Both the position numbers and the translations under genes were made by a program. From Octopus vulgaris (lineage: Eukaryota): DNA of 64,000 bases. The stretch is from positions 138,880,001-138,944,000 of the forward strand of contig OX597817.1 of the NCBI GenBank assembly GCA_951406725.2, in the 5' to 3' direction. Of the stretch, positions 26,976-57,890 are shown in pieces (position 1 is the stretch's first letter; each line of letters starts with the position of its first letter). The notes below the pieces were generated by a model. That model was not told where the DNA came from and ran no database searches. It saw only the letters and a list, made by a program, of their open reading frames with translations.

Positions 26976-28047
26976 TCGAACTTGATATTTAGTAATACCC
27001 CACAACCTCACTGGTCTATTCTCAGCCTCTATCCATCCCTCTTCTTACTCTCTCTGTCTCTCTCGCGAGGGAGAGAGAGAGGGGGTGGAGTAGAGTATGT
27101 TGGTCAGTAATTAGTCGTTAGTTGTGTGCAATATTTGATAGGTTGAGTGTACAGGTGAAAATGAATGCACTACTATTTGTATAAGCTACCATTCCTTTTT
27201 ATTACCTGGAACGTTCGCAGTTACATATGTACAACAATTATTTGAATAAAAGATCATTCATGAGAGAATGGGAGAGTGAATGCGATAGTAAAAAAATTTT
27301 CATTGCATAACAGTTTTAGCTATTTATACGAAAACCGTTTATGGTTATTAAAGAAAGAATAAATAGAAAGAGTGAGAACACACCTTATCACAAAAACTGA
27401 CCGACAGAGTTCTATGCAGCACCTGAAATTGTTCTATTTGGAAATTCAATATCTCAGCTTTTATTACTTCAGTCAAAACTTCGAGAACCTTCGTCAGAAG
27501 TATTTGACGGGGATATTCACAAAACTTACGTTCAAGTCTACCACTGGTTACATCCAGCCAAGTTTGATTGGTTGGACCACATTCACGCAGGTGTTAATAC
27601 CTTTTGGTGCATTAATTTCTTGTAGATGATCTTTACCTTTTGTGGTATAATAGTTACTGGTTATAAACCGGAAATGTGAACGAGATGGTTCAAAATCCCG
27701 CTACATATCTATTTCCGGTATAAGAGATTGTCTTTCTAGTTCAAAGGCAGCTAAAAGACATAAATTCACGTCTCTATTAATCTTCACTCCAGTTCCTTCA
27801 CGAATCAAGAAGCATTTTTACTGCTAACAGAAACAGCTTAATGACAAATAACGGTATCTTATATTGGCAATGATTCTTCGGTCAAAGTCCATCTGAAAGA
27901 GACAATGGAGAAGTTCTCACACATCTGGAACTGTGCTGCTACTGCCGCTACAGGTATTGGAGAACGCAGCTTAAAGGCTGGCCGCCGTGCCTTGATGTCG
28001 CTCACAATTGTATTAGTATGGCGCTCAGGAAATATAAATAAAACAAG

Positions 28048-28085
28048 TCTTTAACGTTTCGAGCCTACGCTCTTCAACAGAAAGA
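28048..28085 (-). ncRNA. Minimal type I hammerhead-like motif (A6U core variant)
   Basis: UCUUU-CUGUUGA-A-GAGC(GUAG)GCUC-GAAA-CG-UU-AAAGA; stems I and II pair perfectly. Confidence 0.6.
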
Positions 28086-28249
28086 TACACAGAGAGAAAA
28101 AAACACAGAAAGAAGGAGAGAAAAAATGCGTGCAGTAGCTAACGAATCAACATGGCGATCTGATTTCGGCCAGAGGTCAAAGATCAAACATGAGACGCGA
28201 GAGCGAAATAAGGGGAGATAATAGGGTTGATAATAGGGTTGAAGGACCA

Positions 28250-28610
28250 GCTAATAGTGCGTAGGAGGGGTCTGGACGTGTGTATGTATAGGGTTGGTGT
28301 ATGTATTAGTATGTATAAGGGTGTGTGTGTGTGTGTGTGTGTGTGTGTGTGTGTGTATGTGTATGAGAGAGTATTAGTGCGTAGGATTGGTCTGGACGTG
28401 CGTATGTATGGGGTTGGTGTATGTATTAGTATGTATTAGTATGTATTAGTACGTATTAGTATGTATAAGTGTGTGTGTGTGTGTGTATGAGAGAGTATAA
28501 GTGCGTATGAGGGGTCTCGACGTGTGTATGTATAGGGTTGGTGTATGTATTAGTATGTATTAGTATGTATTAGTACGTATTAGTATGTATTAGTTGGTGT
28601 ATGTATTAGT
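28250..28610. repeat. ~120-bp tandem minisatellite (3 copies) with (gtattagtat)n sub-repeats
   Basis: gtgcgtagga..ggtctggacgtgtgtatgtatagggttggtgtatgtattagtat repeated near 28257, 28377 and 28500. Confidence 0.8.
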
Positions 28611-29129
28611 ATGGCACATCATATATGATGTGATGTGTAAAGTCGTGTGGTGTAGTGAGGAGAAGAGGGGAGGGGGAGAAGAGGGGGGAGAAGGGGAGGG
28701 GAAGAAGAGGGGGAGGAGAGGGGAAGAGAAGAGGAGGGGAGAGGGGGGAGGAAGGGGAGGAAGGGGAGGAGGGGGAGGAAGGAGGAAAGAGGGAGAGGGG
28801 GAGAGAGAAGGGGAGAGAGGGAGTGAGGGAACAGAGGGAAGGGGAAGAGGGAGGGAGGGAGGGAGAAAGAGGGAAGAAGGGAAGGGGAGTAGGGGTGAAA
28901 GGATGAAGGACTGAAGAAGTAGGGGTCGGGGGGAAAGGATAGGTGAGGAGGGGGGAGAGGGGGGTTAGATGAGGAGGGGGGAGAGTTGAGACCAAATGGC
29001 GTATAAGAGCGAAGAGAGAAGATTAATTCCTGTTCACGGCGCAAACGGGAATCCGGATGGCCTCTGTGTAAGGACAAACCGAACACAGATAGGTGTTGCA
29101 AGGAGTGACCGATATATATATGTATATAT

Positions 29130-29453
29130 GGAGACCCCCTTCGGTCATGAATGACCATGGGATTGCACCTAGAAAGTTATCCTCCGAGACAAGATTGTTT
29201 ATGGAAGGCAAGATTGTTTATGGAAGGCCAACAGTCGCCCATGCATACCAGACTCCCGATGTTTTCCAACGAAAAGGCAAAGGAGCCGATACAGCTTGGC
29301 ACCAGTGATGTCGCAACTCATTTCTACAGTTGAGTTAACTGGAGCAACGTGAAATAAAGTGTCTTGCTGAAGAACACAACACACAGCCCAGTCCGGGATT
29401 CGAACTCAGAACTTCACGATCGTAAACTCGATGCTCTAACCACTAAGCCATGC
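29130..29453 (-). mobile_element. tRNA-derived SINE family C
   Basis: Minus strand A box TGGCTTAGTGG and B box GAGTTCGAATCC; body homologous to 52120-52428. Confidence 0.8.
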
Positions 29454-30144
29454 GACACACACACATACACACACACACACACAGACACGCACACACACAC
29501 ACACACACACACACACACACACACACACACACACAGATATATATATATATATATATATATGTGTGTGTGTGTGTGTGTGTGTGTGTGTGTGTGTGTGTGT
29601 ATCTTCGAAACGCGGAGTAGATGAAACAGGGGCAACTGATGAAGAGGAATATTCTTTATGTTGCATGTCTCGTTTCTCTGCTTGTTTTTTTCGTGGTTCC
29701 CCCCCAAAATTTCGTTTCTGTTTTTGTTTTTATGTTTTCATTTCTCATTGTGTTTAACGTTTTTTTTTTCATGTCCTGTACTCATATATGCATGTATATA
29801 TACATATATATGTAGGTATGTACATATATGTATGTATATATGCATATATTTATATATTAATTATATTATTATATGATCGAACGCCACGCATCCTTTTCCA
29901 AGTATATATATATATATATACGGCGTGTGAGTGTGTGTACCTTTTGTATGTGTTTGCCTACAACCAACTTCGATGTCGGTTTGTTGTCTACGGCCACGTT
30001 ATCGAGCGGTTCGACAGAAGAGTCCGATAAAATAAGAACCAGGCTTTAAAAATTACTGCGGTTGATTCATACAACTAAAGACTCTACAACGCGGTGCTCC
30101 AGTATAATGACTGAAACAAGTAAAAAAAAAAACCACATCATATA

Positions 30145-55420: not shown

Positions 55421-55461
55421 TATTATAACTGCAACAATTATCTGACACTAAGCTTCTGTAC

Positions 55462-55626
55462 CAGTGGTCCATAACCTTTTCACTACCAAGGACTCCTTTT
55501 ATTTAAAAGAGTTTTCCCACGAACCCCAGGATATTGAAAGGTCTGTCGGCTTAACATGCTGATGGACCCTTAATGCTACCTTTGCAGACCACCAGGGATC
55601 CGTGGACCACAGGTTGGAAACCACTG
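55462..55626. mobile_element. hAT (Charlie-like) MITE, 165 bp
   Basis: CAGTGGT...ACCACTG termini; 8-bp TSD ttctgtac / ttctatac. Confidence 0.8.
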
Positions 55627-55647
55627 TTCTATACTATATTTCTCCAC

Positions 55648-55990
55648 GGTCATATGGCGTAGTGGTTAAGAGCGCGGCCTATTAACGCCAAGATTCCGAG
55701 TTCGATTCCAGGCAGTGACCTGAATAATAATAAGAAGAAGAAGAAGAAGAAGAAGAAGAAGAAGAAGAAGAAGAAGAAGAAGAAGAAGAAGAAGAAGAAG
55801 AACAACAACAACAACAACAACAAGAACAACAACAACAATAACAAGGAAAAATACCTTAGGAATGAGAACCCAGGTTCGAAATTTCCCCAAGACACCCGAT
55901 GAGGGCTGGAGGATATATCAGCCGAAACGTTTTGTTAGCAACAAACAAGATGAGGACAAATATCAAAAAAATGTAAATAATGTAAATAAT
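55648..55990 (+). mobile_element. Composite element: tRNA-like head, (AAG)n/(AAC)n linker, hammerhead-bearing tail
   Basis: GGTCA...TGACC acceptor-like stem (55648-55720), A box TGGCGTAGTGG, B box GAGTTCGATTCC; HHR-like motif at 55891-55936. Confidence 0.6.
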
Positions 55991-57539
55991 GAATTTTTTT
56001 TTTGGTGTTTCAAAGAGTAAAATCGTGTCCTTAATTTAGAGTGTCATCGTGTTTTTGTTTTTGTCTTCTTTCCAGACCGGTAAATTCAAAATATTCATCA
56101 CCTTTTTATTCTTTGACCCCAATGATGTAATTTTCATTTGTATTGTTTGTCATTTTTTGATTTTATTTGAATTTATCCCCAAGTAAGATTTGATCGAGCA
56201 GTTTCATGATCAAAGTCAATCCAACCACGACAGTCTTGCTTGCTTGTATATCAAGAAATAGTTAAACTAATGAGCTTTTCTTTTTAGTCGTTAGCGTGTT
56301 CCTTTGTGGGAGATTGAGCTGATATTTCTAGCAGATCACTCTACTCGTTAGAGACACTCAGGTTGGCTGATGTATCCGAGTGGTATTCATACGTGTAAAG
56401 TGATCCATTGGTCGGGAAAATTAAAAATGAAATCCTGGAAATAAGTTAATGAATTACTTTTACGCATCTATTCTTCGCATGGAGTGACAGACAGAAAGAG
56501 TGAAAGGAGGAGGAGGAGCGTACGAAACAGGAGGATTTTGTATTTGGGTAAACTAAAATAGGAACCGCAGATGCTATGTTATTTTCTGTGTTCCTCATAA
56601 AGAGTCGGTTCTAAACTCATGTATCGAAACTTTGTCTGGTCATTGCCTCCAGATAAAAGGTGCCTGAATCCCAAGGTAGCAATGACAGATGCTTTCTAAA
56701 CGGATGGGTGTATATTTTGATTAAGGGGATTGATTTTTAAGTGGCTGTTATCTCCCATATGGTGGGTGAAATTTAGGGTTTAACAAGAAACCGGAAAGAT
56801 ATGGAGAGTGGGAGGGAGAGAGGGAGAGACAGAGACAGACAGACACACACACACACACACACACAAACAGGTTAATGAGGGTAGTTTTTTGACATGTCAC
56901 TGCCGTGAAAGTAACAGTCTGTGGTTCCTGGTGACAAGGTTCTACGCATCTGTTACACAAGTCCGTCTCCAACTGTGTTAATTGTTCCGGGTCGTGCTAC
57001 GTTCAGCTAGGGCCAAGTGATTATGTCGTCTACCCAAGTGCAACAGACTAATCACTTTTCTAATTAATTACAAATAGAGCAGAGTATGACGATTATCATT
57101 AACGGTGGAGTTCAGTGGGGATTCGTGCCGGGTGGATAATAGTTTGACTATGAGAATCATAGTCTGAGAAAATTGTAAATTTTCTCTAAATTGTATAAAC
57201 ATATAAACACACATATAAGTATAGATCCATTTAGTTTTCATGAAGTATTGTCTGATGTGTATATATAAATGGTTTCAATTAGTATTATTTTTAATTTGTA
57301 AAGCCAATACAATGCAAGTTATACCAAATAACGCAGGCCAATCATTTGAACTTTTACCTTATATTTCAGTATTTCTGAATTTGTACGGCTTCTTCACAAA
57401 ATCTTCGGAGATCTGTGTTGTTAGCTAACTTCTGTTCTGTAGCGTGTTTGTGTGTGTGTGTGTGTGTGTACACACAATATAGATGAGATGTGATTTTATG
57501 CCTAGATAGAGTTATATATGCGTAGTTGAAATTTATAGA

Positions 57540-57890
57540 AAAGAAAAAGACGAAGGCAGGAATATGATCAACAAGCAAGTTTATTAGTTTAACCCTCGGG
57601 AAAAATGGAAAAGCCTTTTACGTTTCGAGCCTACGCTCTTCGACAGAAAGGAACACGATAAAATAAACAGTGAGAGAATGAAAAAAAAACTTGCAGAGTT
57701 CAGCTGGAAGGCTGGAATCACCAAGTCCTTTTCATTTCCTCTGTCTATTTTCTCTTATTCTTTTCTGCTGATGAGCGTAGGCTCGAAACGCAAAAGACTT
57801 CATTTTCCCAAGCATCAAACTAATACACCTGCTCGTTGTTCATACGCCTGTCTTCGTCTTTTGTTTTTCTATAAATTTCAACTATAAATT
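57540..57890. mobile_element. Penelope-like terminal remnant with two divergently oriented hammerhead-like motifs
   Basis: Minus 57614-57651 CCUUU-CUGUCGA-A-GAGC(GUAG)GCUC-GAAA-CG-UA-AAAGG; plus 57760-57797 degenerate copy; outer flanks loosely inverted; same motif family as 28048-28085. Confidence 0.65.

Follow-up and report, generated by a model that had tools for sequence, protein, structure and literature searches.

Hammerhead ribozyme motifs in an Octopus vulgaris genomic window: probable ends of Penelope-like elements, one young family with a U6 core

Penelope-like elements (PLEs) carry minimal hammerhead ribozymes, described by Cervera and de la Pena in 2014 as type I folds with a tiny palindromic stem III and an extra base after A9, which occur as thousands of solo copies from truncated PLEs, as inverted pairs 100-700 bp apart and as several families per genome (PMC4209133). 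For the Hydra clade of PLEs, Craig et al. 2021 give RWK, DKT and CxCX5C as hallmarks (PMC8557442, section 11), together with (TA)n targets and a hammerhead near the 3' end, and the supplement of that paper already lists the hammerhead of an octopus Hydra family, Hydra-1_Obim. Here we analyzed a 64,000-nt stretch of Octopus vulgaris DNA (GCA_951406725.2, contig OX597817.1, positions 138,880,001 to 138,944,000 of the forward strand; hereafter the window), a microsatellite-rich part of a 2.8-Gb genome, in which nine hammerhead motifs share the features that Cervera and de la Pena describe. As judged from sequence, these are probably minimal type I folds that mark the 3' ends of high-copy retroelements from five families (A to E), most of the carriers being read as truncated PLEs. 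Hammerheads at PLE ends are known biology; what appears to be new is a U at core position 6 in the young family A and the likely PLE-driven movement of the tRNA-headed family D.

A first-pass annotation of the window, made from the letters alone, had placed the nine motifs, and each was found again at the same coordinates and on the same strand, with GUH retained in all but the copy at 57760, as that annotation had said. Nine separate carriers there are not, as the motifs at 54313 and 54509 lie in the two arms of a single inverted duplication (179/179 bases identical), which leaves eight insertions in five families: A (28048, 57614, 57760), B (38076, 54313/54509), C (54914), D (55891) and E (54137). 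A relaxed type I descriptor with stems of at least 4 bp detected six cores, five on the minus strand (28080, 54167, 54395, 54957, 57646) and one on the plus strand (54516), against a mean of 0.01 and a maximum of one in 100 local dinucleotide shuffles, and a chance origin of the motifs is thereby ruled out. The remaining three were missed because a U.U pair adjoins the core (38076), the closing pair of stem I is broken (55891) or position 16.1 is a C (57760). No additional copies were found in the window by nhmmer with seven family seeds. The expectation that standard searches would miss such motifs was borne out for Rfam: the best 150 of 447 matches in the window held neither hammerhead nor tRNA and were mostly microsatellite matches to miRNA models, five family loci gave no hammerhead at the gathering score, and two short stretches gave none at E<=10.

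The extra base after A9 had been regarded as non-canonical, and is in fact part of the published PLE consensus, CUGANGAH (PMC4209133). The differences from that consensus lie elsewhere: the representatives printed in Fig. S3 of the same paper, obtained with a descriptor that fixed the catalytic boxes, are all U4 and A6 and include no cephalopod, whereas here position 6 is U in family A and position 4 is C in family C and in most sampled E copies. Small PLE hammerhead variants reported by Lunse, Weinberg and Breaker (RNA Biol 14:1499, as cited in PMC6765202) cleave as dimers; they share with our families a short stem III, the association with PLEs and the proposed cleavage as dimers.

Family A consists of terminal repeats (pLTRs) from a young PLE of the Neptune type. 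The suspected Penelope link is visible in the window itself, where the 5' limit of a truncated minus-strand insertion is formed by the C-terminal 40 residues of a GIY-YIG endonuclease of Neptune type (EN; 28991..29110, tblastn identity of 100% over 40 aa to the open reading frame (ORF) of locus L278). This tail is followed by a CT-rich tract and a 124-bp tandem unit (28165..28990), similar to the tandem region before the pLTR in L278 and L280, and by the pLTR end (28001..28164) with the hammerhead at 28048-28085 (core CUGUUGA plus A, stem III ACGU, H17=U). Genome-wide, the EN-tail DNA (29110-28991) gave 40 scored matches out of 1323 candidates, all 100% identical, and in 19 of 20 fetched loci sharing it a U6 hammerhead lies ~1 kb downstream on the same strand. 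L278 contains an open 825-aa frame with DKG, a reverse transcriptase (RT; PF00078 above cut-off), a CSRPRCRTC linker and a CCHH-type GIY-YIG domain, and in L280 two A repeats in direct orientation, 4474 bp apart, enclose the RT and EN frames with one frameshift between them. Full-length elements flanked by A-type repeats thus exist, as they do for B-type repeats. The DKG RT, CX2-5CxxC linker and C-terminal GIY-YIG with CCHH seen in L278 and the direct pLTRs of L280 are those of the Neptune clade, a placement made by motifs and not by an RT tree with named elements; microsatellite targeting is also shared, family A ending in (TA)n in 15/20 cases, and the U6 core is the feature of family A itself. 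In L278 (7056-7400) the frame has no stop directly after the endonuclease and continues through the CT-rich tract, which varies in length. Four loci chosen from spaced motif pairs as candidate full-length A elements (L021-L024) proved to be independent short insertions. The window holds two further copies, an older one at 57543..57695 on the minus strand (hammerhead 57614-57651, CUGUCGA) and a decayed one at 57700..57868 on the plus strand (57760-57797), which has C6 and has lost GUH.

The A6U change proved to be a real family-level trait of family A: exact-pattern matches genome-wide number 12,765 with U6 and 123 with A6, and U6 is present in 19 of 23 copies found without motif-based selection. 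Since A6 is invariant in the canonical core, we file family A as a variant. Decay after insertion is rejected as its source, because U6 is present in the youngest copies with open ORFs. All four bases occur at N7 among the family A exact matches and H17 is G in only one of the 100 matches listed, so that N7 and H17 vary and H17 shuns G while U6 stays, which is the pattern that hammerhead chemistry predicts. The 34-nt motif is also kept better than its flanks (pairwise identity 0.84 vs 0.61 and 0.70, in 21 copies not chosen on the motif). In contigs from four public runs, which show no RNA ends, depth peaks over the motif and the loose ends diverge on both sides, which fits an island shared among subfamilies. 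No alternative base at position 6 is listed in these runs, to which we give no weight, since they also fail to list the known variation at position 7.

From this pattern we consider it reasonably probable that the U6 core still cuts, and a slow-cutting rather than a dead ribozyme is predicted. Some published data weigh against this, as a natural A6C core reached a kobs of under 0.1 per min (PMC3088659) and mutants in the CUGA region had low activity in a pairwise scan (PMC9901934). Position 6 is part of the CUGA turn, where changes lower activity, and the lineage was mobile with U6 until recently, to judge by its open ORFs and by EN tails of 100% identity, so fast cleavage is evidently not needed; together with the non-cleavage functions that Cervera and de la Pena leave open (PMC4209133), this gives some room for a motif that no longer cuts and is retained as a folded or sequence signal, read by the Neptune protein at the RNA 3' end. 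We regard such a pure signal as unlikely, since the other core positions are fixed while the catalysis-free N7 and H17 vary, with H17 avoiding G, and since the natural A6C variant, slow in Mg2+, still cuts and does so better in Mn2+ (PMC3088659). The natural A6C and U4C cores (PMC3088659, PMC7151607) concern the same two core positions as ours, and they keep low activity, Mn2+ being favoured by A6C; they are rare single cases from a phage and a viroid, whereas here the changes are fixed in thousands of animal retroelement copies and position 6 is U. We found no paper describing natural A6U or CUGUNGA-type cores, in a search that covered neither the alignments of Lunse et al. nor most of the subscription literature.

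A second young Neptune-type family (L088-L117), with 18,973 first-look candidates and frames that stay open for as much as 869 aa, has no copy in the window. In 25 of 30 loci its endonuclease is followed at ~200 bp (in L089 near 2150, for example) by a hammerhead-like variant with a U3-A8 core, a stem II of only 2 bp and the palindromic stem III ACCGGU. Further hammerhead-like families, among them another long-stem-II type, whose stem II begins GAAGA, and one of U3-A8 form, were seen in sample blocks C2, C5, C8, C21 and C26. The diversity of PLE hammerheads in this genome exceeds five families.

Family B is the terminal repeat of a Hydra-type PLE, with 2586 first-look candidates genome-wide. 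When the EN beside a B copy was used as protein query, 30 EN-anchored loci were obtained, and in 24 of these the B motif lies downstream of the Hydra-type EN on the same strand. Uninterrupted frames of 976 and 984 aa are present in L281 and L282; L281 has RWK, DKT and CxCX5C with no CCHH in its EN, as in the Hydra clade, and carries three repeats, one inverted, one direct on the 5' side and one on the 3' side. Its repeat is 78% identical to that of the window; the repeat of L283 is closer (95%) and accompanies a frame that is likewise of this type but partial, with 559 aa. An inverted 5' copy together with a (TA)n target is found in L281, in L282 and in the window at 54277-54749, where the inverted 5' arm (54277..54455, minus strand, hammerhead 54313-54402) is followed by the direct arm (54456..54749, plus strand, hammerhead 54509-54598) with a 3' tail ending in (TA)n. 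An older relative of family B lies at 38042..38240 on the minus strand (hammerhead 38076-38163), likewise with a long stem II and ending in (TA)n, and its stems are compensatory in the alignment; the U.U pair beside its core is common to many Hydra-clade members (PMC8557442). The B core is canonical (C3 U4 G5 A6 N7 G8 A9 ... G12 A13 A14, A15.1-U16.1, H17). The long stem II insert noticed earlier is a real family-level trait, the stem II region being 58 nt and holding a covarying inner 7-bp hairpin, and it is this region and the longer ORF (976-984 aa) that set family B apart from Hydra-1_Obim as a separate family.

The two remaining pLTR families are less well anchored. Family E (3724 first-look candidates) is homologous to A and probably the end of a Neptune-type PLE; its copy in the window (54035..54236, minus strand, hammerhead 54137-54171, CUGACGA plus A) is by this homology a sister of family A, and 24/30 copies end in (TA)n. 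Family C (615 first-look candidates) is probably a Hydra-type PLE end, present in the window at 54791..55034 on the minus strand with a hammerhead at about 54918-54961, the core CCGAAGA and the family stem III ACAUGUGU. A Neptune EN next to one C copy (L067) belongs to another family that has its own 3' motif. U4C, which had been named as a recurrent variant, is family-wide in C (nearly all cores listed) and common in E (12/18 copies, the U4 copies having a canonical core); at 55891 it is private to that copy, the family D core reading CUGAUGA. With U4 invariant in the canonical core, C and this part of E are filed as variants; a viroid provides a natural example of U4C (PMC3088659, PMC7151607).

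Covariation had been set as the check on these folds, and it is clear for family B and weak for A/E. Among 32 of 44 extracted B motifs (leaving out duplicates, most inverted twins, one internal-deletion copy and one mis-anchored copy), mostly found via protein, 12 of 25 pairs show changes in both partners, a count that 0/500 shuffles reach, this test being inflated by relatedness of the copies; all six slid registers were lower, with 31-48% paired vs 90.5%. Stem III is a perfect palindrome in six of seven copies tested, the C copy of the window being imperfect. The hammerhead structure is under selection. Several results weigh against reading all motifs as working PLE ends. For A/E (37 of 49 copies, leaving out eight motif-selected and four poor or duplicate ones) 4/11 pairs covary, a count reached by 31/500 shuffles; the z-scores for folding of single strands (-0.6 to -2.2) do not stand out, and in RNAcofold the hammerhead dimer was the best fold in 1/7. 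A Pfam scan of two Hydra-type frames gave no family. The coding links of C and E are thin, with Hydra-like ORF pieces on the strand of the C repeat in 4/31 loci, Neptune pieces near three other C loci, a Neptune EN tail upstream of E in one of 30 extended loci (L348), and no ORF match in the one direct pair of E examined (L360). PLE minimal hammerheads are also described as cutting poorly in vitro even as dimers (PMC4209133), and Naiads as spreading without canonical hammerheads (PMC8557442). The first-pass annotation had spoken of several families that are non-autonomous. D alone looks so: A and B are 5'-truncated ends of PLEs that do code, and this is probably the case for C and E as well.

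Family D (2349 exact pattern matches genome-wide) opens with a tRNA-like head, the 5' start of which is sharp; (AAT)n and a canonical hammerhead (CUGAUGA plus A) follow, and the 3' end is fixed and has no simple-repeat tail. In the window, on the plus strand, the head with RNA polymerase III (Pol III) A and B boxes lies at 55646..55725 and the body at 55726..56006, with (AAT/AAG/AAC)n and the hammerhead 55891-55936, which has its private C4 and a broken 1.1 pair. The head was found in 18/30 loci; the B box is exact in 29 and the A box has at most one mismatch in 30 of 38 heads, and one head was called tRNA-Ser by ARAGORN at a lowered threshold, default ARAGORN and the Rfam tRNA model giving no call on it. 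TTTT is found on the sense strand of 2/30 D copies vs 50/50 in A and E, and a sense strand mostly without TTTT is what Pol III transcription would need. Family D is thus short and non-coding with a 5' tRNA-like head bearing A and B boxes, as in short interspersed elements (SINEs). Just upstream of D an inverted copy of its 3' end is present in 12/30 loci, vs 0/67 for a control repeat (the one at 53735-53930, plus strand; 67 matches in 800 kb), and one head-to-tail dimer (L313) was seen among the 30 loci. Inverted 5' copies are a PLE insertion pattern (PMC8557442, Fig. 2), which the inverted duplications, the dimer and the fixed tail-less 3' end of D match.

On this basis we lean, by a modest degree, towards a family D moved by PLE machinery. 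Against it stand the absence of a PLE ORF joined to D in 42 loci, beyond two weak matches, and of (TA)n at its ends (0/19). Both also suit an ordinary tRNA SINE driven by long interspersed elements (LINEs), the partners that the SINE definition names (PMC3531059), with a captured Penelope end as passive cargo and a hammerhead idle in its spread, and so does the head missed in 12/30 copies. A coding partner sharing the 3' end of D, whether PLE or LINE, was not identified, LINE tails not having been searched. We think the LINE-driven origin improbable, given the inverted 3'-end duplications on the 5' side with none in the control, the L313 dimer, the fixed 3' end without tail and a family core that is canonical. 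Returning to PLE-driven movement, a fuller picture can be offered tentatively, as somewhat short of an even chance: D would be a Pol III-transcribed tRNA SINE partnered by PLEs that uses its own hammerhead and reaches tens of thousands of copies, alongside a recently active Neptune lineage running on a U6 hammerhead, a rewired core held in >12,000 copies.

The nearest precedents for D are the SINE-like hammerhead repeats of schistosomes, for which Pol III transcription is reported (PMC6765202), and the non-LTR retrozymes, which have been proposed to derive from PLE repeats; both are non-coding and hammerhead-bearing as D is (PMC6765202, PMC7229834, bioRxiv 10.64898/2026.07.22.740005). D differs from them in being mostly dispersed and monomeric and in its 5' tRNA-like head, minimal stem III and PLE-type inverted duplications. 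Non-LTR retrozyme arrays were considered and set aside, with one direct dimer in 30 D loci and no such array among the 150 of 160 window repeat rows listed. Our search, which did not reach most subscription papers, turned up no paper describing Penelope-mobilised SINEs. Ohshima and Okada reportedly described three octopus tRNA-SINEs in 1994, and family D may equal one of them.

By analogy with PLE work, spread of these families may proceed as follows. Where a full-length or tandem element gives a transcript with two repeats in direct orientation, these would pair via the palindromic stem III and be cut at NUH as a dimer, freeing a unit RNA that is perhaps circularised by tRNA ligase. The RT and GIY-YIG endonuclease of the element would then insert the unit RNA, mostly into (TA)n, and early termination of reverse transcription would leave short solo ends, often truncated and with an inverted 5' piece. 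Family D likely borrows Penelope enzymes. Solo copies in the window, none of which has a partner from its family nearby on the same strand, are predicted to be inert monomers. E, B and C insertions stand end to end within 1.2 kb (53934-55159) with (TA)n between them, which fits repeated targeting of one microsatellite.

The copies had been taken as one dispersed system, and they are better described as independent insertions of genome-wide families at near-background density. The background sample consisted of eight arbitrary 100-kb blocks (0.8 Mb), in which the descriptor found 26 matches vs 2 to 6 in 8 shuffles and homology found 52 (D 21, A 12, E 9, B 9, C 1), a rough extrapolation from which gives about 180,000 fragments of the five families genome-wide. 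The six descriptor matches in the window compare with 2.1 expected (P=0.02, or 0.06 if the inverted pair is counted once). That the window is a local, host-selected ribozyme cluster acting jointly on a host transcript is very improbable, because this 2- to 3-fold excess over the sample mean (P 0.02 to 0.06) is spread over five unrelated or distant families on both strands with several decayed copies, the stem III palindromes differ from family to family, and one sampled block elsewhere, with 13 family matches, is equally dense. The window's own copies are ordinary dead insertions.

The interest lies in the families. For the question of what PLE hammerheads do, this genome supplies matched natural material: full-length elements of both the Neptune and the Hydra type that are young and have their repeats in direct orientation, sister families that differ in having A6 or U6 in the core, and others carrying C4. 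Should U6 dimers prove to cut, both the hammerhead consensus and the descriptors used in searches would have to be broadened, and present counts for animal genomes would be underestimates; should they not cut, the part that the motif plays in transposition would be a non-catalytic one. SINEs are defined with LINEs as their partners, a definition that becomes wider if D is PLE-driven.

Other features of the window were identified by eye. An open 358-aa frame at 17935-19011 on the plus strand resembles a Tc1/mariner transposase, and a fragment at 44953-45444 on the same strand resembles an LTR-retrotransposon integrase. Microsatellite-interrupted fragments at 5172-5489, 13149-13454, 33061-34492 and 35595-37290 resemble the RT and C-terminal endonuclease of non-LTR retrotransposons. 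Besides the control repeat at 53735-53930 (plus strand), another abundant SINE-like repeat lies at 29150-29460 on the minus strand, both being without hammerheads.

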